From: Promethearchaeota archaeon
GTDB lineage: Archaea; Asgardarchaeota; Lokiarchaeia; Sigyniarchaeales; SOKP01
NCBI GenBank assembly: GCA_048938895.1
Contig: JBHLLU010000059.1
Coordinates: 1-24,019 of the forward strand
Length of the DNA stretch: 24,019 bases
Direction: 5' to 3'
Shown here one piece after another: positions 4,351 through 19,929 of this stretch. Within the stretch, counting starts at the first letter, position 1, and each line of letters starts with the position of its first letter. The position numbers were made by a program, and so were the translations under genes. The notes beneath the pieces are model-generated. The model was given only the letters and a program-made list of their open reading frames with translations, was not told the origin of the DNA and searched no databases.

Positions 4351-5610
4351 ATGCCAAGTTCAAAAGAATTTATTGATATGGATAATGAATATTGTGCTCA
4401 TAATTACCACCCAATTCCTGCTGTAATTTCAAGGGCAGAAGGAGTGTGGGTATATGATCCAGAAGGTAATAAGTATTTAGATTGTTTATCTGCTTATTCT
4501 AGTCAAAATATAGGTCATTGTCATCCTGAAATTATAGCCGCGCTGAAAGAACAAGCAGATACCGTTACATTAACATCTAGAGCATTTCACAATGATAAAA
4601 TGGGACCATTTTTGAAGATGTTAGCTGAAGTTGTTGGACCACATATTTATGACCCTAATAAAGCAGGTATTATGAGTATTCCAATGAATACGGGGACTGA
4701 AGCAGTATCTACTGGTTTAAAAGTAGCTAGAGCATGGGGATATATCAAAAAGAAAATTCCTAAAAATGAAGCAATCATAATTGTATGTCGCAATAATTTT
4801 CATGGAAGAACAATTACTATTTCAGGTTTTAGCTCCAATATTTCCGCTGTTCGGTATTATGGTAATTTTGGACCATATACACCTGGATTTATAATTATCT
4901 CTTATGGCGATGCTAAAGAACTTGAAAATGTTATTTTAGAGAAAGGTCCTGAAAAAGTTGCAGCATTTTTATTTGAACCCATTCAGGGAGAGGCTGGAGT
5001 GAATGTCCCTCCAGAAGGGTATTTGACAAAGGTAAGAGAAATTTGTACAAAATACAATATTCTCATGGTTTTAGATGAGATTCAAACTGGCTTCTGTAGA
5101 ACAGGTAAACTTTTTGCTTGTGAACATGAAGATGTGAAACCAGATGTACTATTGTTAGGGAAAGCTCTTGGAGGTGGGATTTATCCTGTATCCGCTGTTG
5201 TAACAACAAAAGATATTGTAGGACCTGAAGTGATCAAACCAGGAACACATGGAAGTACTTTTGGAGGAAACCCATTGGCATCAGCAGTCGCTATGAAATC
5301 TATTGAAATTCATTTAAGGGAAAATCTTGCTGAACGAGCGCAAGAAATGGGTGCTTATTTTGTAAAAAGACTAAAAGAAATAGCTGAGAAGCGAACAAAG
5401 ATACCAATTAAAGAAGTAAGGGGAAAGGGTTTACTTATTGCTGTCGAGTTTTCTGAAGATGCCAGACAGATTGTTGAAGATTTAAAGAATAATGGTATAT
5501 TAGCGAAAGATACCCATTCCACATCTATTAGATTTGCTCCTCCTTTGGTTATTACAAGAGAAGAAATTGATTGGGCGATTGAAGTAATCGAGAAAGTATT
5601 AATAGTCTGA
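4351..5610 (+). CDS. rocD: Ornithine--oxo-acid aminotransferase (class III PLP)
   Basis: AHNYHPIP, DCLSAYS, GHCHP, LTSRAF, NFHGRT, EPIQGEAG, DEIQTG, GKALGGG (PLP Lys), HGSTFGGNPL, IRFAPPL. Confidence 0.92.
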   Translation: MPSSKEFIDMDNEYCAHNYHPIPAVISRAEGVWVYDPEGNKYLDCLSAYSSQNIGHCHPEIIAALKEQADTVTLTSRAFHNDKMGPFLKMLAEVVGPHIYDPNKAGIMSIPMNTGTEAVSTGLKVARAWGYIKKKIPKNEAIIIVCRNNFHGRTITISGFSSNISAVRYYGNFGPYTPGFIIISYGDAKELENVILEKGPEKVAAFLFEPIQGEAGVNVPPEGYLTKVREICTKYNILMVLDEIQTGFCRTGKLFACEHEDVKPDVLLLGKALGGGIYPVSAVVTTKDIVGPEVIKPGTHGSTFGGNPLASAVAMKSIEIHLRENLAERAQEMGAYFVKRLKEIAEKRTKIPIKEVRGKGLLIAVEFSEDARQIVEDLKNNGILAKDTHSTSIRFAPPLVITREEIDWAIEVIEKVLIV

Positions 5611-5690
5611 ATTTCTCCGTTCTTTTAAAAAGAGGAATTGTTTTAGGGTCGAAGAAAAAATGTAAAGAATAAAAGGGAGCACGCAATGGA

Positions 5691-6071
5691 TTAAATCTTT
5701 CCATTAAATTTGCTTATATTATTACTAAGAAATGTTAGTACCTCAATTGGATCGGCTCCTTGCATAGCGTATGAAACAAGTGTACCTCCCTGAAAAAAAG
5801 CAAATATCACATGTCCCATACCGAGATCATTAGTTGTGATAATTCCTTTAGCATTAGATTCTTTTACTAAAAATTCTGCATCATTTAGTATGAATAGGTG
5901 CTCTCCATTGATGACTTTTAATATTCCTTCCATACTTGAGTTAAGATCCCAATTTTCTGTTTGATAAATCAACTCACCCTCTTTTGAGATTAATGCAAAA
6001 CTTGCGATTTTAGTATTAGCCTCGAAAGCAGCGATTCCTAAATCATCAATAAGGTTTTTTACTTCATCCAT
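5691..6071 (-). CDS. Asgard-type profilin-like protein (divergent)
   Basis: 126 aa; ALISKEGELIYQTENWD, TNDLGMGHVI and GGTLVSY...P match the remembered Lokiarchaeal profilin pattern (AIIGKDGQIITQTENW; TNITGKGHV; GALITY...P). Confidence 0.75.
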   Translation of the reverse strand: MDEVKNLIDDLGIAAFEANTKIASFALISKEGELIYQTENWDLNSSMEGILKVINGEHLFILNDAEFLVKESNAKGIITTNDLGMGHVIFAFFQGGTLVSYAMQGADPIEVLTFLSNNISKFNGKI

Positions 6072-6099
6072 TGCAATCTTTTATACCCTCTTTTATTTG

Positions 6100-7011
6100 C
6101 TAATCTAGGTATATATGTGTTCCTGCTCTTTCTTCTAAAGCATCAATAATTTTATCAATAGAGGTTATAATTGCTCTTTCTCCGCCAGATTCTAAAAAAT
6201 TAATTACTGCTTGAATTTTAGGTCCCATACTTCCTGCTGGAAATTGACCTTCGTCTAAATATTTTTTTGCCTCAGAAACAGATAATTTATCTAATTCTAT
6301 CTGGGACGGAGTTCCATAATTTAAAGAAACTTTTTCTACATCAGTCGCGATTAATAAAATGTCTGCATCTATTTGTTCTGCTAATTTTGCACTGGCGAGA
6401 TCTTTGTCAATGACAGCTTCAACACCGTAGAGCTTTTTCTTTTCTTTTATTACGGGAATCCCTCCCCCTCCACATGCAATAATTATCCAACTGCCTAATT
6501 CCATCAGTTTTTTAATTTCCCGCCATTGGTAAATTTTGATAGGTTTGGGTGAAGGTACCACTCGACGATAACCTTTAGCGGTTTTGACATAGCCAGGTTT
6601 GGGAATATCATACGCAGGTCCAATGGGTTTAGTTGGGTTTAAAAATGCTGGATCTTCAGCATCAACTTTTACATATGTAAGTACCGTAAGAAAAAGTTTT
6701 TCTTCATCTAATCCTAAATTCATTAATTCTTCATCAAGGGTAGATTCAATCATAAAACCAATCTGACCTTGAGTTTCGGCTACTAATATTTGTAAGGGTC
6801 TTTTTGAAACAGCTTGAGTTGCTTCCTGTTGTAGTAATAGGTTACCTACTTGCGGTCCATTACCGTGTGTTATTATAATATTGTAATTTTTAGCCAATTG
6901 TGCAATCTGGCTGATAGGTATTTTTAGATTTCTGAATTGTTCTTTAGTTGTCCCTTCATCTCCAAATTTTATAAGAGCATTTCCTCCCAATGCGACTATA
7001 AGCGTTTTCAA
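6100..7011 (-). CDS. arcC: Carbamate kinase
   Basis: VALGGNAL, THGNGPQVG, NPTKPIGP, YRRVVPSP, GGGGIPV, EAVIDKD, GSMGPK. Confidence 0.97.
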   Translation of the reverse strand: MKTLIVALGGNALIKFGDEGTTKEQFRNLKIPISQIAQLAKNYNIIITHGNGPQVGNLLLQQEATQAVSKRPLQILVAETQGQIGFMIESTLDEELMNLGLDEEKLFLTVLTYVKVDAEDPAFLNPTKPIGPAYDIPKPGYVKTAKGYRRVVPSPKPIKIYQWREIKKLMELGSWIIIACGGGGIPVIKEKKKLYGVEAVIDKDLASAKLAEQIDADILLIATDVEKVSLNYGTPSQIELDKLSVSEAKKYLDEGQFPAGSMGPKIQAVINFLESGGERAIITSIDKIIDALEERAGTHIYLD

Positions 7012-7286
7012 TTAATAAACCTCTAGGTAAAATTACATAAAAGTAAATGAAAAATAGATAATATTAAACCTATTATTTAAAATTTATGAAGGGTTTAACG
7101 TATGTTTTCAATTATTTTTAATGTTATTCATTAAGTATCTAAAATACAGAAGAATGCTTTTAACTATTCCTAAACTTGAATGCAGAATGTTCTTATCACG
7201 TAATTTAACACGAAATTCAACCAAACAAAAAGCTAAAGGATAAAGGATAAATATTAAAATAGTTTAAAATCACTTTAATTGCTTGT

Positions 7287-7745
7287 ATGTTTAAATCTCA
7301 TAATTTGGTAGAATCTAAGATGAAAAAGTATAATAAAGGAAGATTATTGATAACTTTGGCAACTCTAGTAATAATTATATCATCATTATATTATATAGTA
7401 TGGAGTCGAAATATCTATCTCAATGGACCTCTCAATCCTGATGATTACCATCAATTACAAGGTTGGTTCTGGCTTTTTACAATTTTCAGTGGTTTTAATA
7501 TCTTTTTATTGTTGTATTGCAAATATAAAAAGATACACCTGAGTCTTAGTGGTTATTATATGTTTTCTCCATTTATTTTAGTTATTTTAACAAGTTTTTC
7601 AATGTTGAATGTATTTACATTTAATAACTCATTAGAATATATAAATGAGCCCTTGTGGATTGAAACATACTTCAGCTTTCTGATAATCTTCGAAATAATA
7701 TTTTTCATTGGTGTATTCATAATAAATAAATATAAAAATTTATAG
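7287..7745 (+). CDS. Hypothetical membrane protein (about 4 TM helices)
   Basis: Four hydrophobic segments; fills the gap between minus-strand genes. True start may be the second Met (MKKYN). Confidence 0.65.
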   Translation: MFKSHNLVESKMKKYNKGRLLITLATLVIIISSLYYIVWSRNIYLNGPLNPDDYHQLQGWFWLFTIFSGFNIFLLLYCKYKKIHLSLSGYYMFSPFILVILTSFSMLNVFTFNNSLEYINEPLWIETYFSFLIIFEIIFFIGVFIINKYKNL

Positions 7746-7782
7746 TGTTATGAGGACTTTTTATTATTTTCAATGATTCTGA

Positions 7783-8700
7783 TTAGACAACAGAATCTGG
7801 CAGTTTCTTAAAGGTACCAGATACTTTCTCAGGCCATCCAGGATTTATTTTCATAAGTGCCGCAAGATGAAACACAGCCCAAGATCCACATAGATCGCAA
7901 TTTACATCATTCCCATAACAACAAAATGGCATTTCAAATCCCTTTTCTCCCAGATATAATGGTACCATAAAATTTTTAACAGCACAATTATTCGTAATGG
8001 CTAAAGCGTTGTGAGATAACATAAGCTCCAAAACCATTGAATTATTAAGAATAAAGTCTGGATAATTCTTTTTAAGCTCTATGACCCTCTTTATTGCTAA
8101 ATCTCGTTCCTCTAAAGATATCCAACTTAAACCTGTGTTGTCTATTTTTTTTGGTACATAAAATGTAAATACCACACCCCTAAGAATCGTATTCTTACGT
8201 AAAGAATTAATAAACTCTTCAAGATAATCCTGATTTTTTTTGGTTACGACACAGTTGCACTGAAGATCTCCACTAAAATTTTCTGGTAAATTATTCAAAT
8301 TTTTGATAACTCTCTTATAGCTTCCCTTTCCTCTTATTTCATCGTTAAGACCTTCTGGACCATCCAAGGATATCACCCACGTTATGGTTGGTCCTAAATC
8401 TATTAGAGGCAATGTCCCATTAGTTGTAATCGTATTTTGAGGAAATAATTTTATTCCTTGTTGCAGTATATCTCTTCTTAGAAGTGGTTCGCCACCCATC
8501 CAAATCATTCGAACTATTCCAAATTTTTTTCTGTACCTCTTTAATTCTTTTATCATTTGTTCTACAGACATTTCATTCTCTTTAGTAGGGGTATTTGGTG
8601 TTCCCTCGCGGTAAACAAAACAATGTTTACATTTTAAAGTACACCTGTTTGTTATATTGACCATTGCAATAGGACGTAATTCTTTTCTCAAGACTATCAC
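7783..8700 (-). CDS. Radical SAM protein with a Cys-rich C-terminal auxiliary domain
   Basis: CxxxCxxC (CTLKCKHC), GGEPLL, TTNGT, ISLDG, IRGKG; C-terminal C...CCYGNDVNCDLCG. GTG start. Confidence 0.9.
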   Translation of the reverse strand: MIVLRKELRPIAMVNITNRCTLKCKHCFVYREGTPNTPTKENEMSVEQMIKELKRYRKKFGIVRMIWMGGEPLLRRDILQQGIKLFPQNTITTNGTLPLIDLGPTITWVISLDGPEGLNDEIRGKGSYKRVIKNLNNLPENFSGDLQCNCVVTKKNQDYLEEFINSLRKNTILRGVVFTFYVPKKIDNTGLSWISLEERDLAIKRVIELKKNYPDFILNNSMVLELMLSHNALAITNNCAVKNFMVPLYLGEKGFEMPFCCYGNDVNCDLCGSWAVFHLAALMKINPGWPEKVSGTFKKLPDSVV

Positions 8701-8755
8701 ATAATCTTAAATCAAAATATCCAACATAAATTGAGCATGAATGATATTAAAGCTT

Positions 8756-10474
8756 TTATATATCTTCTTTTTTAATCCATAATTTTTTTAAAAAATGTGC
8801 TGCCATTTTAGGTCTCCTATCTCTTGTAAATACACCTTTAAAATTAATGCCACCCATCCTTAGAACACCTTGAGATGTCTTAAAATCGCATAGGTTCCAG
8901 ACATGATAACCAATAATAAATGGTTTACTCTCTATAAGCTCTATATATTTTTTTAGAAATTCGATTTGATACTCTTCACTGAACATTTCTGGAGGTTGGG
9001 AGTGCCATCCAGGGATAGTATCAGTTCCAAATTCACTTATAAAAATCGGTTTTTTGTATTTTATATATAAATTCTCAAGTTCTTCAGATAAATTCTCAAT
9101 TCCTTTTTGAATTTGACCCTGATTAACATACCATCCATAGTATCTGTTTAAGCATACCATATCAAAAAACTCAAAAGAATCATTTCTTACGTTTTGAGAA
9201 TTGATTAGGGTAATTAAACGAGATGAATCTATCTCTTTTATGAACTGGTAAAGTTCCAGAAAGAAATTCTTTGAAAGTTTACTGGACCTTGGTTCATTTG
9301 CCAAACTCCACATTATCACACTGGGATGGTTTTTGTCACGTTCATATAATTCTTGCATATATTGTTTACATAATTTTAGATGGCGATCAATATGACTACT
9401 ATCAAAAGTAAGCCCAACTGCTGGAATTTCATCAATAATTAAGAACCCAAGACTATCAGCAAGGTCCATCATTTGTTCTGAGTAGGGATAATGAGTAGTT
9501 CGAAAAGAATTTGCACCAATCCATTTCATTAAAGAATAATCTTTAATGATTACAGCTGGGAGATAACCCCTTCCTGTTACTGGAAAATCCTCATGTCGTC
9601 CAAATCCATATAACCTAACTGGTTTGTCATTCAAAAATAGCTCATTACCTTTTACTTGAATAGTTCTAATCCCAATCCTTAGAGTATAAGCATCTATAAC
9701 TGTCCCATTTTTAAGAATTTCTGCTGTTAAATCATAGAGATAGGGATTATTGGTAGACCAGAGTTCCGGATTTTTAATTATTAACTTTTTTTCTATTATA
9801 TTTTCATTATTTGACTTTTTTATTATGACTTCTTGTTTCTCTCCATTAAGCAGTATCCGAGATTCAACTGGTTGCTCATTGCCAATTTTTAACTTTATTG
9901 AAACTATTCCAGAATTATTTTCAATATTAGTAATTATAGTAATATCTTCAAGACCCTTTTTAGGGACTGAATAAAGCAAAACAGGGCGATGAATGCCACA
10001 AAATGGGAAGAAGTCAAAATTTGTATTAGGAAAGATTTGTGGCCTACCGCTCGGTGGAACACGATCAGGGGCCAATGTTCCATCAACTCTAACTACAAGA
10101 AGATTATTCTGGGGATTTAATAGATTAGTAACATCAAATTCAAACGGTAAATGACCTCCTTCATGAGATCCTATATTCTCTCCATTAAGCCATACATCTG
10201 CTAAATAATTAACAGAACCAAATCGTATGATAATTTTTTGATCATCCCAACCTTTAGGAATATCAAAGTAAGTTTGATACCATCCAGGACCTAAAAAATC
10301 CCTATTTTCAGCAAATTGATCATTCCAACTTGCAGGTACAGCTATAGGTTTCCCATTAGAATACCCCTTATACCATTCACTTTCTATTCCTTCTTCCTTA
10401 AAATCAAATCGGAAATCCCAAAAACCAGAAAGATCAATATATTGTCGATAACTATTTCTTATTGGATAAAGCAT
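8756..10474 (-). CDS. uidA: Beta-glucuronidase (GH2)
   Basis: MLYP start (ATG 10474; GTG 10483 is the alternative), AVPASWND, DFFPFCGIHRPV, GFGRHED, NSFRTTHYPY, WSLANEP (acid/base Glu), SEFG (nucleophile) and the GUS-diagnostic NxKG motif (NFKGVFTRDRRPK). Confidence 0.92.
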   Translation of the reverse strand: MLYPIRNSYRQYIDLSGFWDFRFDFKEEGIESEWYKGYSNGKPIAVPASWNDQFAENRDFLGPGWYQTYFDIPKGWDDQKIIIRFGSVNYLADVWLNGENIGSHEGGHLPFEFDVTNLLNPQNNLLVVRVDGTLAPDRVPPSGRPQIFPNTNFDFFPFCGIHRPVLLYSVPKKGLEDITIITNIENNSGIVSIKLKIGNEQPVESRILLNGEKQEVIIKKSNNENIIEKKLIIKNPELWSTNNPYLYDLTAEILKNGTVIDAYTLRIGIRTIQVKGNELFLNDKPVRLYGFGRHEDFPVTGRGYLPAVIIKDYSLMKWIGANSFRTTHYPYSEQMMDLADSLGFLIIDEIPAVGLTFDSSHIDRHLKLCKQYMQELYERDKNHPSVIMWSLANEPRSSKLSKNFFLELYQFIKEIDSSRLITLINSQNVRNDSFEFFDMVCLNRYYGWYVNQGQIQKGIENLSEELENLYIKYKKPIFISEFGTDTIPGWHSQPPEMFSEEYQIEFLKKYIELIESKPFIIGYHVWNLCDFKTSQGVLRMGGINFKGVFTRDRRPKMAAHFLKKLWIKKEDI

Positions 10475-10542
10475 AATTCTCACTTTATTATTGAAAAATA
10501 TCCAAAAACTAAATTCTTACAAAATGTAATTGATAAAAATAT

Positions 10543-11475
10543 TTAGAATTTATTTCTTAAAAAAAGCATAATAGCCTTTTGGATATGCAATCTATTTTCT
10601 GCTTGATCAAATACTATTGATTGAGATCCATCGATAACTTCTGCGGTCTGTTCGTAACCTCTCATAGCAGGTAAACAGTTCATAAAAATTGCATCTGATT
10701 TAGCTTTATTCATAACAGAAGTCGTCACTTGATATGGTAAAAATGCTTCTTTTCTTTTTTCTTCTTGATCTTGAGGTATTCCATAACTCATCCAACTATC
10801 AGTATAAATAATATCAGAATCTTTAGCAGCATCGAATGCATCGTGAAAAATCTTTATTTCAGCACCTGTTTCTTTAGATAAATTTGATATTTCATCAAAA
10901 ACTTCCTGTTCAGGTGAATACTCAGCTGAATTAGGACAGGCAATATCCATTTTCCATCCAAACATCGCACACATCCGCATTAAATCATAGGTAACATTAT
11001 TATAAGCATCTCCGAAATAAGATAATTTCATAGCCTCTAAATGTGTTTTTTTCTCCTTTATCGTCTGGAAATCAGCGAGAATCTGGCATGGATGAGCAAA
11101 ATCGTCAAGCATATTTATAACAGGCACATCAGCATATTTTGCAAGATCCCGAATGTCTTGTCTTTTAAAAACTCGCGCAGCGATGATATCAACAAATCTT
11201 GATGCAACCTTAGCTGTATCACTAATGTTTTCTTTCTTGCCGAGTGGTGAATCTTTAATCGAGTAAAAAATGGCATGACCCCCTAATTGTTGCATTCCTG
11301 TTTCAAATGAGATACGTGTTCTTAAAGATGGTTTTTCGAATAACATTAGAAGTGTTTCATGCTCGAGAGATTTATAATATTTGTTAGGATTTTTTTTAAT
11401 ATCTATTGCTTTATTTATAATAAGTTCACATTCTGACCTCGAAAGATCTGATACTTTAAGTAAATGTCTGACCAT
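10543..11475 (-). CDS. arcB: Ornithine carbamoyltransferase, probably catabolic (ArcB role)
   Basis: FEKPSLRTR carbamoyl-phosphate site, HPCQ, YTDSWMSYG, MNCLPA, DQAENRLH. Catabolic role inferred from nearby arcC and the ArcE-like gene. Confidence 0.92.
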   Translation of the reverse strand: MVRHLLKVSDLSRSECELIINKAIDIKKNPNKYYKSLEHETLLMLFEKPSLRTRISFETGMQQLGGHAIFYSIKDSPLGKKENISDTAKVASRFVDIIAARVFKRQDIRDLAKYADVPVINMLDDFAHPCQILADFQTIKEKKTHLEAMKLSYFGDAYNNVTYDLMRMCAMFGWKMDIACPNSAEYSPEQEVFDEISNLSKETGAEIKIFHDAFDAAKDSDIIYTDSWMSYGIPQDQEEKRKEAFLPYQVTTSVMNKAKSDAIFMNCLPAMRGYEQTAEVIDGSQSIVFDQAENRLHIQKAIMLFLRNKF

Positions 11476-11609
11476 TATTTATCACATTTTTAGTGTTTTT
11501 AATTATATAATGTTTGATTCCTTAAATTATAGGTAAAATTTTTTGTTTCATATTCAAAAAGATAGGAGGATTCGCTTTTTAATGAATAATTGAATTTTTT
11601 TTAAATTTC

Positions 11610-13232
11610 TCACAAATTATTTGGACGACGTAACACTTTTCCAGGATATTTATGCTTTTGTTTAAAATCGTCGATAACTACAATCCCATTTATGATTACA
11701 TAAGGTATACCTTCAGGAAATTGATGTGGTTCTTCAAATGTAGCTTTATCACTTATTTTATCGGGCTCAAATATAACTAAGTCTGCCCAATTACCTTCTC
11801 TCAACAAACCTCTATCTCCTAATCCTAATTTTTGGGCAGGAAATGAAGTCATTCTTCTTATTGCATCTTCGATTGTAAGCAATTTTTCCTCCCTTACATA
11901 TTTCCCCAATACTCGGGGATAAGTCCCAAAAGTTCTTGGATGATTCAGCTTTAAACCGGGTAATAATTTTCCAGCAACAGAATCTGTTCCAAACATTTGA
12001 AATCGATGAGTCATAATTCTACGAATATCTTCCTCTCCCATAGTTTCTATAGTAATTGATGTTTCACACTTTTCTTCAATTAGAATTTTAAAGAAAGTTT
12101 CCCAGTCGTCATTATATCCCATCAATTTAGAAATTTCTGTGATACTTTTACCTGCGAGTTCTTTCCATTCCTCCTTCTTGAAATAGGTTGGATAAATATG
12201 ACTAAACCCATCAATTTTAATCCAATTTTCCCAATCATCAGATTCCAGAGAACTTATCTCAATGATTTGCTTTTGTATTTCTGGATCTTTTATTCTATTT
12301 AAAATTGTTTCAGGATCACCTTCTCGCGCCCAAGGAGGAAGTGCTGTGACAAGGCTTGTCTGCCCACGATTATATGGATACTGATCAAAAGTAATATCTA
12401 TTCCTTTCTTATTTGCCTCTTCGACTAAATGTAATGATTCCTTGCTCATTCCCCAAAAAGGTTGACCTGCAACTTTAAAATGTGCTATTTGTCCTCCTAT
12501 GCATCCAGACTTTTCTACAATTTCAACAAATTCCTTAATTGCCTCTAATAAGTTTTTTCCTTCATCTCGAATGTGAGAAAAGTAAAGTCCATTATATTGA
12601 CCAACAACTTTCGTTAATTCTATTATTTCAGAGGTTTTAGCAAATACTTGAGGTGCATAAATAAGACCAGTACTCATGCCAAAAGCACCTGCCTCCATTG
12701 CTTCAGCTACATATTGTTTCATATTTTCAAGCTCTTCATTTGTAGGAGAACGATTCTCAAAACCAGGACCTCCGGCAATTCGAACTGTCTCAAACCCTAA
12801 AACAAATACTACATTTGCAGAGATTTTTAATTTTTCCATTTCATCCAAATATTCAGAATAACTATTCCATGTAATAGGAATATTTCCAACAGCAGGGATT
12901 TTAAATAATTCCTTAAATAGTTCAATTTTATCAACGGGTACTGGAGCAAGCCCGTCTCCACACATTCCTACTACAGCTGTAGTAATTCCCTGGTGGACTG
13001 CTGCATCCATACCACTGTAAATTGGTAGTATTACATCTGTGTGAGAGTGCATATCAACAAATCCGGGGCATACAATCATGTTTGAGGCATCTATTTCTCT
13101 TTCTGCATTCCCACTTATTTTTATTCGTATTTTTGCAACCTTTCCATCTTTAGTGGCAATATCTCCCAAATAAGCTGGATTTCCTGCACCATCAACTATT
13201 TTCCCATTTCTAACAATAATATCAAAGTTCAT
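11610..13232 (-). CDS. N-acyl-D-amino-acid deacylase (D-aminoacylase, amidohydrolase superfamily)
   Basis: PGFVDMHSHTD, GMCG (Cys ligand), STGLIYAP, SHIRDEG, DQYPY, HPRTFGTYPRVLG, DRGLL...ADLV. Confidence 0.9.
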   Translation of the reverse strand: MNFDIIVRNGKIVDGAGNPAYLGDIATKDGKVAKIRIKISGNAEREIDASNMIVCPGFVDMHSHTDVILPIYSGMDAAVHQGITTAVVGMCGDGLAPVPVDKIELFKELFKIPAVGNIPITWNSYSEYLDEMEKLKISANVVFVLGFETVRIAGGPGFENRSPTNEELENMKQYVAEAMEAGAFGMSTGLIYAPQVFAKTSEIIELTKVVGQYNGLYFSHIRDEGKNLLEAIKEFVEIVEKSGCIGGQIAHFKVAGQPFWGMSKESLHLVEEANKKGIDITFDQYPYNRGQTSLVTALPPWAREGDPETILNRIKDPEIQKQIIEISSLESDDWENWIKIDGFSHIYPTYFKKEEWKELAGKSITEISKLMGYNDDWETFFKILIEEKCETSITIETMGEEDIRRIMTHRFQMFGTDSVAGKLLPGLKLNHPRTFGTYPRVLGKYVREEKLLTIEDAIRRMTSFPAQKLGLGDRGLLREGNWADLVIFEPDKISDKATFEEPHQFPEGIPYVIINGIVVIDDFKQKHKYPGKVLRRPNNL

Positions 13233-13361
13233 TATAGTAAAGTTATATTTATATTTTCAATCTTTGACTATGAATGAATTTAATTTGTCAGTAGATTTAA
13301 ATTTATATACATCCTAATAGAATTTGAGGAAAGTAAATTAATAATTTAATTATGTGTAAAA

Positions 13362-13763
13362 TTGACTAATAAAAATCAAACTTTTAAGTCAAGAAAGAAA
13401 TTTAAATTTATATTTATTGCCAAAAGAATATCTTATTGGGGTATAATCTTATCAGTAGCTTTAATCATAATAAGTATAATATCGATTTTTGTTATTCTTT
13501 ATTATCCCTCACCTATACGTGTTCTTCCTGCGGTTTTCGATCGACGAACATATCTTACAAAAGGAGATTTGATTCAAATTATAATTTTTTCTATAACAAT
13601 TCCTAGTTTATTAAGCACATTTATTTTTATACTAATAAATTTGATTTTGAAAAAGATATTCAAGAAATTTTACCCAACATCTAATGAAAAAGAAATTATT
13701 AATACTCTTGAATCTCTTAAATTACGGAGAATTCAAGATCCTGATCCTTCTAATCTATTTTAA
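13362..13763 (+). CDS. Hypothetical membrane protein (2 TM helices)
   Basis: TTG start, two long hydrophobic segments, TTTATATA at 13302-13309 upstream; 9-nt convergent overlap with the next gene. Confidence 0.55.
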   Translation: MTNKNQTFKSRKKFKFIFIAKRISYWGIILSVALIIISIISIFVILYYPSPIRVLPAVFDRRTYLTKGDLIQIIIFSITIPSLLSTFIFILINLILKKIFKKFYPTSNEKEIINTLESLKLRRIQDPDPSNLF

Positions 13764-14921
13764 TACTTCTTCTTTAAAATATTCACGTGTATAGGATAAA
13801 CTCTTTAAAATTTCATGATCTTGAGAGTTCAGTTTTTCATTTAGAAGTCGACCAATAAGTTCTCCTAAACCAGGTCCTAACATAAAACCTTGACCACACA
13901 TCCCAACGGCATTAATATATCCTTCAATGTTGTTAACTTTGCCAACAATTGGATTTCCATCTGGAGTCATTGGATATAAACCGCGCCATGTTCTTCTTAC
14001 TTTAAGATTTTTTAACCTTGGTAATAATTGAATCATTCTTTTAGAAATTTGAGGTAAAAATGAACCAGTTTCTCTCCTATCTACACCAATCTTATTAGGA
14101 TCCGGAGTTAAGCAGAATAATATCTTACCTTCCTTATTTTGATAAAAATAATAATTTTTTGAGTCGCCAAATTTGGGATCAGTATTTGGTCTAATATCAA
14201 CCACCATCGTATCAAAAAACTTTATTACTGGTTCTGTAATTCCTGCTTCATGAGAATCTGGTATTACAGGTATATTTATATCAATCATATTTCCAATTTC
14301 CTTAGCATGAGCACCAGCAGCATTAATAATATTGTTGGCTTTATATGTAGCATTTGTTGTTTTAACTCCTATGACTTTTCTTTTTTTTAATAGAATTTTT
14401 ATTACTTCTTCATTAAAATGATAATCTACTCCGCTTTCTTTTGACTTTCTGTAAAATGCATGTAAAGCTAACAATGGAGAGGCATTTCCGTCTTCGGGGC
14501 TATAAGTGCCTCCCAGTAATCCCTCATCATTTATCCCTGGAACTAATTGTTTAATTTTTTGAGGCTCAACAAAATCTATATTTAACCCATAACTTTTTTG
14601 GAGTTTGACAGTGTCTTTTAGCACTTTTTCATCTTGTTCTGTATATGCTAAAAATGTATACCCTCCTTGATGCCACCATATATCATCACCATAATTTTCT
14701 TCCCAATTAGAAAATATCTCAATTGATCTTTGACATAGGAGAGATTTTCCAATATGTGAATGAGTGCTTCGAATTCCACCAATGGCATGCTTATTATCAG
14801 CTTGAGCAACAGATGGTAATGAATCTATGACTAAAGTTCTAAGACCTTCGCTTGCTGTTGCCAAGGCAGTAGGAACACCAATACTTCCAGCACCGATAAT
14901 AATTACATCATACTCTACCAT
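13755..14921 (-). CDS. FAD-dependent amino-acid dehydrogenase beta subunit (proline dehydrogenase PdhB / sarcosine oxidase beta, DAO family)
   Basis: IIGAGSIG dinucleotide fold, INAAGAHA, RTWRGLYPMTPDGNPIVG, GMCGQGFMLGPG; 2 nt downstream of the alpha-type subunit gene. Confidence 0.85.
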   Translation of the reverse strand: MVEYDVIIIGAGSIGVPTALATASEGLRTLVIDSLPSVAQADNKHAIGGIRSTHSHIGKSLLCQRSIEIFSNWEENYGDDIWWHQGGYTFLAYTEQDEKVLKDTVKLQKSYGLNIDFVEPQKIKQLVPGINDEGLLGGTYSPEDGNASPLLALHAFYRKSKESGVDYHFNEEVIKILLKKRKVIGVKTTNATYKANNIINAAGAHAKEIGNMIDINIPVIPDSHEAGITEPVIKFFDTMVVDIRPNTDPKFGDSKNYYFYQNKEGKILFCLTPDPNKIGVDRRETGSFLPQISKRMIQLLPRLKNLKVRRTWRGLYPMTPDGNPIVGKVNNIEGYINAVGMCGQGFMLGPGLGELIGRLLNEKLNSQDHEILKSLSYTREYFKEEVLK

Positions 14922-14923
14922 AA

Positions 14924-17008
14924 TTAATTCCCCCCTTTTGAATTTTTAGCTTTCGCAAAAATCCCAAGCGGTACTTCTATAAATAAGGGGCGCTTGGTAC
15001 CCGGTGTAATTGAATTAGTAGAAATCCCTTCCTCCCTAAATATCCGATTTATAAGGGGAGTGCAAGTTTTTCCACCACATGCACCCATTCCTACTTTAGT
15101 AAGTGCCTTTAATTCATTAAAATCTTTAACTCCAACCCGAATCCATTTTCGAATCTCTCTAACAGATATCCGTTCACACCTACATACTATCGTATCATCA
15201 TCAGTATAAGATTTTTGATATAGATCAATAGGTTCGGTGTAAGTACTCTTATATAGTTTAACTCCTACTGCTTGTTTTGCGATTTTTGATGGTAATTTAA
15301 CAGTTATAAGTTGAGTTTTAGGGAATTCTTTCAATATTCTTGCTCTATGAACTGTATATTCTCCTAGTTCTTGATTATTACTAACCACTATAATTTTCTG
15401 ATCCTTTACTAATTTTTCTGCTGATAACTCAAGAGGGAAAGTAACTAGGGGATTTTCTTTATCTTTTCTGTAATCCCTTAATACAACAGCCAGTCCCGGG
15501 CATACAGCTACACATTTTCCACAACCAATACATTCTTCCTCCCCCTTGAAATAAGGGAGTTGTGTAATTAAATCATTAATTGTTTCTATTTGCTTATTAG
15601 GACAAACTGAAGTACATGGATTACATGGAATTTCTTGATTGCAATAGAAAACAGGATAAATTCCTTCTTCTTCCTGAGATACTTCTATATCTTTTGGAAG
15701 AGGAGGTTTTTTTTTCATTAACTCTGAAAATTTCTGGAGTTCATTAAGATCCTCTTCTATTTTAATTCCTCTTTCTTTTAGTATTTTTAAAGCTTCAATT
15801 TTGCCTGTGAAAATTGCGGCTGATGCTTCAGCGATTTCTTGAGCATCTCCTGCCACCCATACATTATAATTATATTCCTTAGCTTTTTGATAAAATTCAT
15901 CCACAGGATTTAATCCAACGGCTATTAATATTGTATCACAAGCATAATTCTTTTCAGTTCCAGCAATAGTGTTAAATTTATCATCTATTTGTGTAATGGT
16001 AATAGATTCGACCTTATTGAGTCCATTTGCAGAAATTATTGTATGATTAGTATAAATAGGAACGCCTAATCTTCTTAATTTGTCTTCATGAACTTTATAT
16101 CCGCCACATTGTGGCATTGCTTCAATCAAACCCACAACGTCGATTCCTGCTTGGATTGCATGGTATCCTGCAATTAAACCGACATTACCACCCCCAACAA
16201 TGAAAATTCGTTCCGCTGCTTTAACCAGATCACGATTTACAAGAGTCTGAAATGCACCTGCTCCATAAACTCCGGGTAATGTATTACCAGGAAAAACAAG
16301 CATACTTTCCCTTGCGCCTGTAGCTATTAAAAGATACTTAGGTTTTACTAATACATACTCATTGTTATCTTTAAAAATTCCAACAAAGCCATCGCTAAAA
16401 ACAGCTAAACATACACTATTTAGCCATATTTCTATACTTGGTAATTCTTTTACTGATTTTCCAAGGATTTGTGCTATTTCAATACCTCGCTTTCCAGCAT
16501 ACACATCTTCTTGAGAGCCAAAAAATTTATGAGTTTGGAGTACTAACTTTCCCCCAAGCGTGCCTTTATCATCCACTAATAGTGTATCAATATTATTTTC
16601 TCCAAGAGCTTTAACTGCTGAAAGACCTGATGGTCCTGCTCCAATTACTAAAACCTCAACAAATTTAATATCTGAATCACCTACACTTATGGGGTCATCT
16701 TCAGCAGGAAGTTCAGGCAACCCATCACAACTTTTAATTATCATTCCTTCCCTAAGTGTGGTCATGCAAGCTTTGACAGGTATGCCATTCGCTACTACAT
16801 TACATTGAGAACATTGACCATTCGCACAAAAAATTCCTTGGGGGCTTAAATCTTTGACATGATGGCCAAAAACTTTAATTTTATTTAGAAAAAGAGCAGA
16901 AGATATAACCATTCCTTCATATCCCTGTAGTTCTTTCCCGTCAAATTTAAAAGCTATTTTCTTTTTTTCGGGAATTTCTAATATGGGATGGGAAGTTATT
17001 TTCTCCAT
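14924..17008 (-). CDS. Multidomain alpha subunit: [2Fe-2S] + FAD/NAD(P) oxidoreductase + 2x[4Fe-4S] ferredoxin + BFD-like [2Fe-2S]
   Basis: CANGQCSQC...KAC; GAGPSG, ATGA and GGGNVG motifs; CNQEIPCNPCTSVCP and CIGCGKCVAVCP; C-terminal CRCE...GMGACGGKTC...RP. Confidence 0.88.
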   Translation of the reverse strand: MEKITSHPILEIPEKKKIAFKFDGKELQGYEGMVISSALFLNKIKVFGHHVKDLSPQGIFCANGQCSQCNVVANGIPVKACMTTLREGMIIKSCDGLPELPAEDDPISVGDSDIKFVEVLVIGAGPSGLSAVKALGENNIDTLLVDDKGTLGGKLVLQTHKFFGSQEDVYAGKRGIEIAQILGKSVKELPSIEIWLNSVCLAVFSDGFVGIFKDNNEYVLVKPKYLLIATGARESMLVFPGNTLPGVYGAGAFQTLVNRDLVKAAERIFIVGGGNVGLIAGYHAIQAGIDVVGLIEAMPQCGGYKVHEDKLRRLGVPIYTNHTIISANGLNKVESITITQIDDKFNTIAGTEKNYACDTILIAVGLNPVDEFYQKAKEYNYNVWVAGDAQEIAEASAAIFTGKIEALKILKERGIKIEEDLNELQKFSELMKKKPPLPKDIEVSQEEEGIYPVFYCNQEIPCNPCTSVCPNKQIETINDLITQLPYFKGEEECIGCGKCVAVCPGLAVVLRDYRKDKENPLVTFPLELSAEKLVKDQKIIVVSNNQELGEYTVHRARILKEFPKTQLITVKLPSKIAKQAVGVKLYKSTYTEPIDLYQKSYTDDDTIVCRCERISVREIRKWIRVGVKDFNELKALTKVGMGACGGKTCTPLINRIFREEGISTNSITPGTKRPLFIEVPLGIFAKAKNSKGGN

Positions 17009-17044
17009 TTGGATTTATTATAAGAATTTAAATAGTAATATATT

Positions 17045-19225
17045 TTATTGATAAGGTTTAATTATTGAAAGAACATCATCAAAATCGATTCCCAATTCTT
17101 TAACCTTTGCGATAGTAGGACAACCTTTTTGATTCCATCCTCGTACCTTATAAACCGCATCTTGAAGTTTTAAATATTGGTCCATTCTGTATGTTCGAAG
17201 TAATTTGATTTTTTCTTCTATGGTTTTTGATTCTATCTCAAATCCTAATTCTTTTAGCTGTTCATCATATCTCTCTGTTCGGCTTTCATATTCTAATGGT
17301 GAGACTGGACCCATAGCCCTATAAGGAAAATTGTTATCATGTTCTCTTAATCCTTTCCCTTGACGTATATTGAAAATTCTTTGAAAATTGTATACAACTT
17401 CTGACATGTATATAATATCATCAGGTGTAGATTCTTTTCCCGTCACAGCAGAGAAATATTGAGCGTACCAAGCAATGTGATCAGGAACCTTAGCTCTAAC
17501 AAGTTCCCCAGTATCAGGATCTTTAATTGGATAGTCTGCTTGAGATTTTGGTTGAATATCATTCCAAGGAAGTTTGCAGAGGCCACAAAGTCCAAACCAA
17601 GTACGCCATAAGGGGAACCAACGTAATGCTTTTGCTTTATCCTCAAAAGTAGGAATTGAATTTCTTATTACATCCTCAAATATCAACCAAGCTTCATCAT
17701 GCTGAGGACCCTTATTAGTAAAACCATAACCTCCTTGTTGAGCTAAAGATTCTTTAGTTACGTATTCAGAAAATTCCAAACCCTTATGTTCCATACCAAT
17801 GTCTTGCATAAGTTCCGGATTTGCCCCATATTCTTTGATAAAAATCTCTTTCATCTCTTTAATCCCTTTACCAACTGTCAGACCAAAGCCATTACCTTCT
17901 GCCATTTGATGGATTAATTCGATTGCAGCTTCTGCATTCCCAAAATTGAGTTCTAATCCTCCAGTAATCTCCTTATTTAAGATCCCTAACTCGAAACATT
18001 CCATTACAAATGCTATACCCGTTCCTACGCTTATTGTGTCGAGACCATAGGTATCACAGTAAAAATTAGTCTCTAATATCCATTTAGGGTCCCAGACTCC
18101 CCAATTTGAACCACAACCGGCAATTGTTTCATATTCAGGACCATCCACAATTACTTTTTGACCTTTAAAGGGTCCTGTTCTAATTTCATAATTTTCTGAA
18201 TAATGAGAACAACTTACCGTGCACCCTATCCAACATCCATCTGCACCCTCTCTTCCAGAATATATCCCCCTCATTATTTCTCTGTTATAAGGAATATCCT
18301 TACCACTAATCTCCTTATGTCTACCATAACGGAAGTTTTCAGTGGGTAATAAATCTGTTACATTCATGATATCAGGAAGATGTCCTGTTCCTACCCTTCT
18401 CATTTCATTTTGAATAGGATCTAATTCCATTATTTCCTGAGTATGAGCTTTCCCTATTTCCCTTGCTGTTTCTAAGTCATCTGGATTGTTTGATTTTATT
18501 GTAACTTTAGGAGATCGACATACTATCGCTTTAATTTTTTTATCTGCGAACACAGTCCCGATTCCTCCCCTTCCTGCTTGTTTTGAAGATGCCCAATTTC
18601 TTCCTTTTACAAACCAAGAAAAATTAAGCATTCCCCATTTTGTATTTTTTGCAGCAGGACCAGTGCATACTACTGAAATTCGTTGTTTTTCACTTTCTTC
18701 TTGTGCAAATCTTTCAGTTAGTTGCTGTGTAAGCTCGTGTGAATATTCTGAAAGGTTCTCATAAGTTGTTGCAGGTTCTATTTTGATGCTACCTTCAACA
18801 CCATCAATAAATATTATTACTTCTTCTTGAGATTTACCTTGAATCTCTAATGCATCAAATCCAGAAAACTTTAGATATGGTCCAAAATAACCACCAACAT
18901 TTGAATCAATAATTATCCCCGTTAATGGTGAAATGGAGGTAACAATTGATTTTCCTGAGCCAGGATAAAAAATACTTCCACCTAAAGGTCCAGAAGATAT
19001 ACAAATTTCATTTTCAGGTTCGTTCCATTTTACACTGTGATCTTTTGGAAGCGAATTCCACATTAACCATAAATCAAACCCTTTTCCCCCAATGAATTTT
19101 TCTTTCATTTCATCAGAAACTGGTTTAATCGCAATTTCTTGCTTAGATAGATTTATATACAAAGTTCTATTAGCATAACCCTTCTGAACGTCATATATTT
19201 CATACTTTTTTTCTATAAAACTCAT
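17045..19225 (-). CDS. Aldehyde:ferredoxin oxidoreductase family (tungstopterin, 4Fe-4S)
   Basis: SPLTG...DSNVGGYFGPYLKFSGFDAL, AGRGGIG, CWIGCTVSC, GPEYET, CDTYGLDTIS, GLCGLCK, YKVRGW. Subfamily not determinable by eye. Confidence 0.93.
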   Translation of the reverse strand: MSFIEKKYEIYDVQKGYANRTLYINLSKQEIAIKPVSDEMKEKFIGGKGFDLWLMWNSLPKDHSVKWNEPENEICISSGPLGGSIFYPGSGKSIVTSISPLTGIIIDSNVGGYFGPYLKFSGFDALEIQGKSQEEVIIFIDGVEGSIKIEPATTYENLSEYSHELTQQLTERFAQEESEKQRISVVCTGPAAKNTKWGMLNFSWFVKGRNWASSKQAGRGGIGTVFADKKIKAIVCRSPKVTIKSNNPDDLETAREIGKAHTQEIMELDPIQNEMRRVGTGHLPDIMNVTDLLPTENFRYGRHKEISGKDIPYNREIMRGIYSGREGADGCWIGCTVSCSHYSENYEIRTGPFKGQKVIVDGPEYETIAGCGSNWGVWDPKWILETNFYCDTYGLDTISVGTGIAFVMECFELGILNKEITGGLELNFGNAEAAIELIHQMAEGNGFGLTVGKGIKEMKEIFIKEYGANPELMQDIGMEHKGLEFSEYVTKESLAQQGGYGFTNKGPQHDEAWLIFEDVIRNSIPTFEDKAKALRWFPLWRTWFGLCGLCKLPWNDIQPKSQADYPIKDPDTGELVRAKVPDHIAWYAQYFSAVTGKESTPDDIIYMSEVVYNFQRIFNIRQGKGLREHDNNFPYRAMGPVSPLEYESRTERYDEQLKELGFEIESKTIEEKIKLLRTYRMDQYLKLQDAVYKVRGWNQKGCPTIAKVKELGIDFDDVLSIIKPYQ

Positions 19226-19365: not shown

Positions 19366-19929
19366 TTAAATCTTGCTAGCTAAATTTTTAGCCCATTTAC
19401 GTATTTCATCCCAATTTCTTGAATCATAAACTCCCGGTTTTGTTTCCTTAAAACCTGCTGGCTTTAAATTTTCTTTTTCTGCATCTAAATATTTTGCATA
19501 TATTCTACCCATCTGATTATAATCCCAGATACCTCCGAACATCATCATCGAAATTGGATTAATATAATATTTGATAGCTTTATCTTCAAGGTACTTTTTG
19601 GTTATTCTGCTAATTTCCTCATTTTCTCCTTTGTATTCCATGAGTGCTCGCGCACCAGAAGATACAAATATTGCTACTTTCTTTTTATTAAGTTCACTAC
19701 TAAACTTCTTTAAAAAGGCTTTAGTTTTACTCGTCCACATTTCCATTTTCATTCCGCTTCCTATTATAACAAGTTCATATTCTGATATATCTTTAACCTT
19801 CTCTTCTTTAAGATTTACGACCTTTACTTCAAAGCCTTCTTCTCGAAGAACTTTAGCAATTTCTTCTGCGGTGCCAGTTGTTGCTCCATAACGAGTTCCA
19901 TACGCAATTAATACTTTTTTATTTGCCAT
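19366..19929 (-). CDS. Flavodoxin domain protein (Flavodoxin_5 / HemG-like)
   Basis: LIAYGTRYGATTGTAEEIA FMN phosphate loop, YELVIIGSG, KVAIF, FGG, DSRNWDEIRKWA. Confidence 0.88.
   Translation of the reverse strand: MANKKVLIAYGTRYGATTGTAEEIAKVLREEGFEVKVVNLKEEKVKDISEYELVIIGSGMKMEMWTSKTKAFLKKFSSELNKKKVAIFVSSGARALMEYKGENEEISRITKKYLEDKAIKYYINPISMMMFGGIWDYNQMGRIYAKYLDAEKENLKPAGFKETKPGVYDSRNWDEIRKWAKNLASKI

Follow-up and report, generated by a model that had tools for sequence, protein, structure and literature searches.

A long-type AOR-family oxidoreductase in a conserved arginine, ornithine and proline gene cluster of Lokiarchaeia: a candidate for the glutamate-semialdehyde step

Described systems and the Lokiarchaeial cluster

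The arginine synthetase pathway, as known from Thermococcus kodakarensis, is among the closest described systems: its namesake enzyme ArcE (TK2200) reversibly turns arginine, ADP and phosphate into citrulline, ammonia and ATP and acts together with ArcB and ArcC, the ornithine aminotransferase (OAT) TK2101 follows, and genetic evidence shows that the ornithine so formed is used to make proline (Michimori et al. 2024, PMC11032458, cited here and below from excerpts of the paper). The same enzyme set, again with an ArcE-like protein instead of arginine deiminase, is encoded in the window analyzed here, namely the entire 24,019-base contig C109 (JBHLLU010000059.1) of a Lokiarchaeia metagenome-assembled genome (MAG; 4.65 Mb, 98.7% complete, 7.5% contamination). 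In contrast to T. kodakarensis, the genes of the window form one cluster, which additionally contains a gene of the aldehyde:ferredoxin oxidoreductase (AOR) family, a proline-dehydrogenase-like pair, termed alpha and beta below, and a flavodoxin-like gene. Further, whereas the ornithine of T. kodakarensis is destined for proline synthesis, we propose for the Lokiarchaeial locus its oxidation to glutamate.

Four further systems bear on the individual parts of the locus. The first is the AOR-family formaldehyde oxidoreductase (FOR) of Pyrococcus furiosus (1B25/1B4N), for which a C5 acid-substituted aldehyde, rather than formaldehyde, has been proposed as the physiological substrate; it may act on glutaric semi- or dialdehyde, glutamate semialdehyde not being named in the excerpts of that paper (PMC12096430, likewise cited from excerpts throughout). 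All four second-shell residues discussed below are conserved in both FOR and the window AOR, but the match between the two is of 151.6 bits, the window AOR has 726 aa as against 619, and in its PDB scores FOR does not come out ahead of AOR sensu stricto (s.s.), WOR5 or BamB. The second is the heteromeric L-proline dehydrogenase of Thermococcales (PH1363/PH1364, 1Y56): by sequence, beta is closest to 1Y56_B and the N-terminus of alpha matches 1Y56_A, whereas the window alpha, with 694 aa, adds a 2x[4Fe-4S] domain and a C-terminal BFD-type 2Fe-2S domain. With these domains, alpha looks like the additional subunits of the four-subunit L-proline dehydrogenase joined into one chain. The third is the PutA/RocA route with the same proposed net chemistry, i.e. 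proline or ornithine via 1-pyrroline-5-carboxylate (P5C)/glutamate-5-semialdehyde (GSA) to glutamate, and likewise with two activities encoded side by side. In the window, however, these would be a DAO-type flavoprotein with its Fe-S subunit and a pterin enzyme, with ferredoxin, flavodoxin or NAD(P) as the expected acceptors, not quinone and NAD. Finally, AorABC of Aromatoleum aromaticum (8C0Z) and WOR1 of gut bacteria also have the gene for the AOR subunit beside that for a [4Fe-4S]/FAD/dinucleotide-fold protein, but apart from generic ferredoxin motifs alpha has no homology to AorA/AorC, and its partner is always an amine dehydrogenase.

ORF calling and Pfam/NCBIfam scans of 20 open reading frames (ORFs) delineate the cluster as follows: the ArcE-like gene (21489-22826), the flavodoxin-like gene (19366-19929; HemG/Flavodoxin_5 type, PF12724, E 3.6e-18), the AOR (17045-19225; long type, AFOR_N + AFOR_C), alpha (14924-17008; Fer2_4 + Pyr_redox_2 + 2x[4Fe-4S] + BFD-like 2Fe-2S), beta (13755-14921; 388 aa, DAO family, PF01266), the ornithine carbamoyltransferase (OTC; ArcB/ArgF, 10543-11475; TIGR00658 361 bits, cut-off 280.85) and carbamate kinase (ArcC, 6100-7011; TIGR00746 368.2 bits, cut-off 358.25), all on the minus strand, and on the plus strand, convergent with arcC, the OAT gene rocD (ornithine--oxo-acid aminotransferase, 4351-5610; TIGR01885 524.7 bits, cut-off 378.4). 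The proteins of the window are 72-94% identical to public entries labelled Promethearchaeota, Lokiarchaeota, Hermod- and Hodarchaeota. What an earlier note had observed from the sequence of the window is borne out by this map: AOR, alpha and beta form a tight minus-strand run with gaps of 36 nt (AOR-alpha) and 2 nt (alpha-beta), rocD lies nearby at a distance of 8 kb, and an NAD-dependent aldehyde dehydrogenase (ALDH) is missing from the window, none of the 20 scanned ORFs carrying PF00171.

The best explanation for the locus is that it constitutes a Lokiarchaeial arginine/ornithine/proline module. In such a module, the ArcE-like arginine synthetase, OTC and carbamate kinase would convert arginine to ornithine with a yield of ATP, OAT would convert ornithine to GSA, which is in equilibrium with P5C, and the alpha/beta flavo-iron-sulfur enzyme would feed proline into the same GSA/P5C pool. 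The long-type AOR, encoded between arcE and alpha/beta, would then interconvert GSA and glutamate as the sole aldehyde step of the network, with its electrons passing to ferredoxin, to the neighboring flavodoxin-like protein or to the Fe-S/FAD chain of alpha. GSA is the only aldehyde of the arginine/ornithine/proline network. We put the probability that the AOR carries the GSA/glutamate step in these Lokiarchaeia, with the direction of flux left open, at roughly 45%. The support for this role comes from gene context, and the substrates of AOR and beta, the direction of flux and any physical complex between them are inferred; the AOR is thus a plausible, if unproven, stand-in for the missing step from GSA to glutamate. 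The presence of a catabolic neighbor, kamDE (28-1576), counts in favor of a functional link in Lokiarchaeia.

Our literature search recovered no published account of an AOR/proline-dehydrogenase pairing in Asgard archaea or of an AOR acting on glutamate semialdehyde, and papers on Lokiarchaeota and AOR, in the parts examined, discuss AOR in general terms only. To our knowledge, most clades of the AOR family lack a known physiological substrate; equally, we know of no recognized P5C dehydrogenase in peptide-fermenting anaerobic archaea. The idea of a substrate of this kind was reportedly raised for the Pyrococcus FOR in 1999 and is said never to have been tested, and the cluster described here offers a concrete candidate for it. 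If the AOR does oxidize GSA, the way from arginine and proline to glutamate would be complete in the prokaryotes most closely related to eukaryotes, reduced ferredoxin would be gained on top of the two ATP from the arginine synthetase pathway, and it would become apparent how proline can be oxidized without a respiratory chain.

Conservation of the cluster and its enzymes

A scan of one genome per species yielded 78 loci with relatives of the AOR, the ORFs of which were clustered. Besides the AOR, alpha is encoded in 25 of them, the ArcE-like protein in 23, beta in 20, OTC in 19, the flavodoxin-like protein and carbamate kinase in 13 each, and rocD in 11; these counts are lower bounds because contig ends cut many loci. 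In all 23 cases the ArcE-like gene is upstream of the AOR, and the flavodoxin-like gene is directly upstream of it in all 13 of its loci; each locus with these cluster genes has an AOR at least 73% identical to that of the window. AOR and alpha are 27-184 nt apart in 18/25 loci, and the gap between alpha and beta is only 0-11 nt in 17 of the 19 loci with both called (266 and 299 nt in the remaining two). Five further Lokiarchaeales loci, drawn from a second GTDB family (f3, genus g15) and three more genera of family f1, extend the range of the comparison: the full order arcE-AOR-alpha-beta-OTC-arcC with convergent rocD is found in four of them, with proteins 60-77% identical to those of the window, while the fifth is without arcE because its contig ends at the AOR; rocD is part of the cluster in all five. 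Two GTDB families thus share the order of the cluster, in changing genomic surroundings. As the trio is kept between the arc genes at this degree of identity, AOR, alpha and beta have been embedded there over considerable divergence, and their arrangement is more than chance.

The 445-aa protein encoded upstream (21489-22826) is soluble with a P-loop and gives no Pfam or NCBIfam match. Its homologues are labelled 'predicted GTPase' or 'cyclic 2,3-diphosphoglycerate synthase' in public records, and its only PDB matches are weak ones to cyclic 2,3-diphosphoglycerate (cDPG) synthetase (E 1.2e-4). ArcE homologues are described, in the excerpts consulted, in closely comparable terms: annotated as hypothetical or GTPase, with low similarity to cDPG synthase, present in Lokiarchaeota and often located near arcB/arcC (PMC11032458). 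Five genes of MK-D1 ('Ca. Prometheoarchaeum syntrophicum') that follow one another directly (DSAG12_02325-02329; Imachi et al. 2020, supplementary table 3) encode a HemG-like flavodoxin, OAT, carbamate kinase, OTC and a COG2403 protein. Because the annotations, the weak cDPG synthetase match, the occurrence in Lokiarchaeota and the arcB/arcC neighborhood all fit the published description, as does the COG2403 run of MK-D1, we read 21489-22826 as arcE, a candidate arginine synthetase matched to the TK2200 homologues by description only. The naming of the ArcE-like protein as cyclic 2,3-diphosphoglycerate synthase or GTPase in Asgard MAGs is probably a widespread mis-annotation.

The downstream enzymes of the pathway appear to be unduplicated: OTC is the sole copy in its genome, where the only other tblastn match is of 31% over 180 aa, and carbamate kinase likewise gives a single tblastn match. 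No PF02274 match, and hence no candidate arginine deiminase, was found in this 98.7% complete genome. The link to arginine catabolism that had been proposed for the locus therefore holds only through ArcE, with the ArcE-like gene accounting for the supply of citrulline, and is qualified further by the prospect that rocD may serve proline synthesis. The flavodoxin-like protein is a possible electron acceptor.

The AOR itself scores above the cut-offs of both family domains (PF02730, 176.3 bits; PF01314, 308.2 bits), and its best PDB matches are P. furiosus AOR (1AOR, 178.6 bits) followed by two bacterial AORs and then FOR. In the phmmer alignment to 1AOR, which covers residues 19-522 (PDB alignments reach at most about the first 630 of the 726 residues), Thr243, Glu313, Tyr427 and His448 in the P. 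furiosus AOR numbering are all identical in the window AOR. These are the conserved second-shell residues of aldehyde-oxidizing clades (PMC12096430). The position of Tyr452 of 1AOR is occupied by Trp. Three of the four [4Fe-4S] cysteines, Cys288, Cys291 and Cys295, align, while the fourth, Cys494, falls in a stretch left unaligned by phmmer; an invariant Cys550, seen in 20/20 sequences, is a candidate for its equivalent. On these grounds the AOR is predicted to have an intact aldehyde-oxidizing site. No close kinship to the characterized sub-clades (AOR s.s., FOR, GAPOR, WOR5/ASOR, BamB, YdhV) was detected, as the modest best PDB score indicates, and the NCBIfam models GAPOR_Arch (53 bits, cut-off 1300) and YdhV (107 bits, cut-off 868) are far from satisfied. 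Among 1.84 billion cluster representatives, about eight full-length relatives (700-860 aa) are 36-59% identical to it, below which the general family begins at about 33%. The AOR complement of the genome is unusually large: of its 12 AFOR_C matches, 11 are in long open frames of 537-728 aa and one is in a fragment of 129 aa at the start of a contig, with two copies lying 3 kb apart on contig C115.

The best PDB match of beta is 1Y56_B, the beta subunit of P. horikoshii L-proline dehydrogenase (169.3 bits, E 1.2e-48), and the protein is a FAD-dependent amine dehydrogenase, probably of the L-proline dehydrogenase type. Other matches, to dimethylglycine dehydrogenase and to sarcosine and glycine oxidases, do not exceed 94.0 bits (sarcosine oxidase beta, 88.8), and those to the NCBIfam models soxB and ThiO are below cut-off. 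The N-terminal part of alpha (residues 13-275) matches 1Y56_A (E 2.7e-20) and also sarcosine oxidase alpha. The cysteine sets for one 2Fe-2S cluster, a pair of [4Fe-4S] clusters and the BFD 2Fe-2S cluster are invariant among twenty alpha orthologues, which also have GxGxxG and GGGNVG dinucleotide-binding motifs in common. Alpha is thus predicted to be a fused electron-transfer protein, ordered as 2Fe-2S, FAD, second dinucleotide fold, 2x[4Fe-4S] and BFD 2Fe-2S, which could pass electrons to NAD(P). A comparison of its ferredoxin domain with the polyferredoxin of the bacterial AOR relatives described below revealed a generic likeness only (21% over 94 aa).

Beta adjoins alpha in 18 of 20 further Asgard loci from six families, no alpha being recognized in the two loci of family f28. 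A PutA-type Pro_dh gene is present near alpha/beta in three of these 20, each from a different non-Loki Asgard family (L121, L125, L138); that of L121 (5269-6195) scores 105 bits on PF01619, and the copy of L125 is directly divergent from alpha. Otherwise, the neighbors of alpha/beta in other Asgard families are mostly unrelated housekeeping genes (glycyl-tRNA synthetase, agmatinase, NifS-like, GTPases, P-type ATPase), and the agmatinase/arginase-family genes near alpha/beta in families f16 and f28 look coincidental.

The affinities of beta also raise the alternative that it oxidizes another amine, such as sarcosine or N-methyl amino acids, D-proline, D-hydroxyproline, pipecolate or an opine, with the AOR removing the matching aldehyde, i.e. 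formaldehyde, 2-oxoglutarate semialdehyde or aminoadipate semialdehyde. The matches to dimethylglycine/sarcosine oxidases and glycine oxidase at 88-94 bits leave room for this, as do the sub-threshold soxB and ThiO hits, the lack in alpha of the folate-binding domain that captures formaldehyde in sarcosine oxidase, and the architecture of alpha/beta, which we take to resemble the HcnABC and D-hydroxyproline dehydrogenase types. Against it, the L-proline dehydrogenase match is about 75 bits above any other, beta follows rocD in its distribution, Pro_dh genes recur near alpha/beta as noted, and Pfam/NCBIfam scans of the cluster found no epimerase, deaminase, creatinase or betaine genes. FOR-type enzymes oxidize C1-C6 aldehydes (PMC12096430), which would suit such a role of the AOR. 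We nevertheless consider another amine as substrate, and likewise any of these aldehydes, quite improbable, and retain proline and GSA as the preferred pair.

A more specific form of the GSA proposal, which we judge improbable, is that AOR, alpha and beta make up one confurcating complex, an anaerobe's counterpart of PutA. Beta would oxidize proline to P5C/GSA and the AOR would at once convert GSA to glutamate, while the chain of alpha (2Fe-2S, FAD, 2x[4Fe-4S], 2Fe-2S) would pool electrons of very low potential from the aldehyde with those of high potential from proline. Proline could thereby be turned into glutamate with neither quinone nor oxygen, the sink being NAD(P), flavodoxin or hydrogen; and were only half of the P5C oxidized, arginine-derived P5C would be dismutated to glutamate and proline. 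With potentials of about -0.58 V for the acid/aldehyde couple and about -0.12 V for P5C/proline, a confurcating complex would be thermodynamically sensible.

Distribution of the AOR clade and the fate of P5C

The wider distribution of these genes was surveyed in 400 Asgard genomes, which are MAGs of uneven completeness and include related genomes, so that the counts are not independent observations. Totals include the genome of the window, whereas the family counts omit it; families (f) and genera (g) carry working numbers, and f31-33 denotes three pooled families, mostly the Thor-type f31. The long-type AOR (E<=1e-100) was detected in 230/400 genomes (94/134 in f1, 12/14 in f3, 26/31 in f13, 0/12 in f15, 18/22 in f16, 11/12 in f18, 0/5 in f28 and 68/89 in f31-33) and beta orthologues (>=45% identity) in 120/400 (76 in f1, 9 in f3, 17 in f13, 0 in f15, 8 in f16, 5 in f18, 3 in f28 and a single one, in f32, within f31-33). 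Orthologues of rocD (E<=1e-100) were found in 158/400: 81 in f1, 10 in f3, 30 in f13, 10/12 in f15, 16 in f16, 9 in f18, 0/5 in f28, 0/89 in f31-33 and one further genome in f4. Since beta occurs mostly in rocD-bearing families, alpha/beta appears tied to the P5C node.

A FastTree phylogeny of 132 rows, with seven AOR copies of the window's own genome as outgroup, sets the long AOR apart as a clade with 100% support, its stem measuring 1.38 from these seven copies. It falls into three parts: a bacterial-type part (51 rows, including a copy of the Lokiarchaeial genome G143), a Thor part (29 rows, none beside alpha/beta) and a Loki/Heimdall part (45 rows, of which 30 are beside alpha/beta and 15 are not). 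The placement in the AOR family tree that the earlier note had called for is thus obtained in part: the AOR belongs to a clade of its own relative to the seven copies, while its position with respect to FOR, no sequence of which is in the tree, is known from the PDB scores, which bring it no closer to FOR than to AOR s.s. The G143 copy that groups in the bacterial-type clade (L229, G143:C1:2117000-2123500; family f3, genus g20) may stem from a transfer between domains, and the same may apply to other copies of 56-59% identity in f3, f13 and f18.

Several observations weigh against a GSA role for the AOR. At least 83 genomes with the long-type AOR are without both rocD and beta at the thresholds used (68 in f31-33, 8 in g11, 4 in g6 and 3 in g5); the AOR is present in 8/10 genomes of g11 and 4/4 of g6, with rocD and beta at 0 in both, and lineages that lost alpha/beta and rocD retain it. 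Outside a part of the Lokiarchaeales (i.e. in f13, f16, f18, f28 and genera g18-g20 of f3), alpha/beta is not beside the AOR, and where both occur there they are on separate contigs or distant, e.g. 87 kb (G143) or 1.15 Mb (G067). In the tree, the adjacency is confined to the Loki/Heimdall sub-clade and requires at least 4-5 changes. The MK-D1 genome has its OAT-carbamate kinase-OTC-COG2403 run about 70 genes away from beta-alpha, with no AOR annotated beside either (Imachi et al. 2020, supplementary table 3). Even among the clustered loci, other genes part AOR and alpha in 7/25: thiC in five, an opposite-strand ORF in one and three genes in one. The thiC gene (PF01964, 419-423 aa) is on the same strand as its neighbors in L012, L016, L051, L055 and L068; in L059, it follows the AOR at the contig end.

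These patterns lend themselves to the rival explanation that the AOR is a general housekeeping enzyme, or one with some other substrate, whose position is either inherited or reflects no more than shared electron carriers, the flavodoxin-like protein or the Fe-S chain of alpha for instance, while P5C is reduced to proline by ProC. Its breadth (230/400 genomes) and its retention where alpha/beta was lost agree with this, and so do its contexts elsewhere, which are unrelated to arginine or proline: a divergent phosphoenolpyruvate carboxykinase (PEPCK) gene and an Hdr/Mvh-like set in Thor genomes, and Iso_dh, ThiS/MoaD-like, DUF362 and aconitase-like genes in Heimdall/Hod genomes. The insertions between AOR and alpha can be added to the same side, along with the presence of ProC and the complementarity of rocD and ProA considered below, for which T. 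kodakarensis provides a precedent (PMC11032458). What this explanation does not account for is the one-strand position of the trio between arcE and arcB, retained in two families at 60-77% identity as the surroundings change, the status of GSA as the sole aldehyde of the network and the failure to find another P5C dehydrogenase. We hold it to be unlikely, though to be reckoned with, and keep to the GSA step as the preferred role in the Lokiarchaeial cluster.

For the AOR clade as a whole the situation is different. The earlier note had expected the clade to co-locate with proline-dehydrogenase-like genes and rocD across genomes, and this expectation fails, given the restriction of the adjacency to part of the Lokiarchaeales and the many AOR-bearing genomes without both partners. 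Its broader proposal of a GSA:ferredoxin oxidoreductase joining arginine, ornithine and proline fares well at the level of the locus, where the conserved cluster, the similarity of beta to 1Y56_B, the lack of RocA/PutA and the predicted intact active site favor it, and poorly at that of the clade, whose orthologues are common in genomes in which neither rocD nor alpha/beta was detected. The clade is older than this role and broader in scope, and we see in the Lokiarchaeial AOR a probably broad-range enzyme recruited to the GSA step rather than a member of a dedicated clade. As the clade is not dedicated to GSA, Thor-type and bacterial homologues should not inherit this annotation.

The search for conventional enzymes acting on P5C supports the gap that the AOR is proposed to fill. 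The genome of the window encodes three ALDHs of about 500 aa (on C11, C114 and C170), one of which passes the methylmalonate-semialdehyde dehydrogenase model; all three score at most 296 bits on RocA models with cut-offs of 648-660, and PF01619 has no match in the genome that would indicate a PutA-type proline dehydrogenase. Across the 400 Asgard genomes, none exceeds the cut-off of the RocA-type P5C dehydrogenase model TIGR01237, and only eight have matches at E<=1e-110 (none in f1, f3, f15, f16 or f18, and one in f13). A complementary distribution of long-type AOR and RocA was considered and proved uninformative, RocA being missing nearly everywhere, including f15, where rocD is present in 10/12 genomes and the long-type AOR in none.

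The distribution of ProA, in contrast, is patterned. It was not found in the genome of the window, in which PF00171 yields only the three ALDHs, and TIGR00407 exceeds its cut-off in just 37/391 Asgard genomes. Within f1, ProA is present in g5 (6/6), g6 (4/4), g11 (7/8), g13 (4/7) and g7 (2/2) but was not found in the cluster-carrying genera g1 (0/49) and g12 (0/41), whereas rocD is found in g1 (40/53) and g12 (29/42), rarely in g5 (1/6) and not in g6 (0/4) or g11 (0/10). Thus, rocD and ProA are nearly complementary among the f1 genera, with beta following rocD. This adds to the evidence against the GSA step, as the complementarity fits OAT being the supplier of P5C for proline synthesis and weakens a purely catabolic reading of rocD: together with the T. 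kodakarensis precedent, it implies that P5C may do no more than undergo reduction by ProC; the genome has ProC as well as one ornithine-cyclodeaminase-family gene. In Thor-type genomes, ProA is found in 0/86 of f31 and rocD in 0/89 of f31 pooled with two small families. That the long-type AOR replaces ProA as a clade-wide rule was considered and rejected, the two coexisting in g5, g6 and g11.

The missing ProA also suggests an anabolic alternative, in which the AOR would run in reverse and reduce glutamate to GSA with reduced ferredoxin or flavodoxin, replacing ProB/ProA; GSA/P5C would then go on to proline through ProC or a reversed alpha/beta, and to ornithine and arginine through OAT, OTC and ArcE operating backwards. 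The lack of detectable ProA in the genome itself and in g1 and g12 is in keeping with this, as is the status of OTC and carbamate kinase as the only copies in the genome. AOR-family enzymes can indeed reduce acids, and cyclization of GSA to P5C would pull the reaction; acid reduction is, however, thermodynamically uphill. Moreover, the long-type AOR coexists with ProA in g5, g6 and g11, an argG/argC/argD-like cluster on contig C75 of the same genome offers the usual route to ornithine, and the kamDE neighbors of the cluster are catabolic. While ArcE is bidirectional in T. kodakarensis (PMC11032458), we regard the reductive AOR as highly improbable and give its onward route to proline and arginine no greater credence.

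To collect bacterial relatives of the AOR, metagenomes were scanned with an 862-aa seed sequence, a relative 52% identical to the window AOR and named from an uncultured Cloacibacillus. The scan returned 80 loci, probably representing only a few lineages, with AORs 49-56% identical to that of the window; it found no close relative of the seed itself, the homologues being 52-67% identical to it over the best segment. In 16 of these, all high-GC loci, the simple ORF caller called no AOR ORF, and they were left out of the context counts. In the 43 loci with at least 3 kb downstream of the AOR, a MoeB/ThiF-like gene comes next in 28, an ALDH lies within four genes in 17 and a D-2-hydroxyacid dehydrogenase in 15, while a polyferredoxin gene is upstream in 22 of the 44 loci with upstream sequence. 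The conserved bacterial operon reads polyferredoxin, long-type AOR, MoeB/ThiF-like, P5C dehydrogenase-like ALDH, 82-aa ORF and D-2-hydroxyacid dehydrogenase (L149, L154, L161, L168, L188 and others).

For this bacterial ALDH, two genes downstream of the AOR, the highest scores are those against models of L-glutamate gamma-semialdehyde dehydrogenase: 417.8 and 398.1 bits, where the cut-offs would demand 648 and 660. The 2-oxoglutarate semialdehyde dehydrogenase model follows at 325 bits. The presence of the ALDH beside the AOR argues against a simple replacement of P5C dehydrogenase in these bacteria, and no homologues of alpha, beta, rocD, OTC, arcC or the ArcE-like gene were detected at E<1e-6 in any of the 80 loci; both points add to the case against the GSA proposal. 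The ALDH could tie the clade to the P5C node a second time and independently, or the AOR might act otherwise beside a conventional P5C dehydrogenase, and we attach little weight to either interpretation.

Other genes of the window

At the start of the window, rocD is flanked by kamD/kamE (lysine 5,6-aminomutase; plus strand, recognized by Pfam/NCBIfam, with kamD cut by the contig start) and by a gene for a penicillin-amidase-family protein (1639-4089, minus strand, likewise by Pfam/NCBIfam). The former recurs in L010, L052 and L054 and the latter in L063 and L064, suggesting that the locus belongs to a larger island of amino-acid catabolism. Between OTC and carbamate kinase are encoded a radical SAM protein (7783-8700, minus strand; SPASM-like) and a beta-glucuronidase (GUS; 8756-10483, minus strand; NF007538 597 bits, over cut-off); one or both recur in L011, L013 and L056, with no apparent link to the pathway. 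A 126-aa soluble ORF (5691-6071, minus strand), 28 nt downstream of carbamate kinase, matches no family and has one distant paralogue, on contig C44, at 31% identity. The amidohydrolase gene between beta and OTC (11610-13232, minus strand; D-aminoacylase-like, PF07969/PF01979, NF006560 200.6 bits, below the cut-off of 340) is a variable member of the cluster, being present in 5/78 loci, and has a 40% identical paralogue on contig C33.

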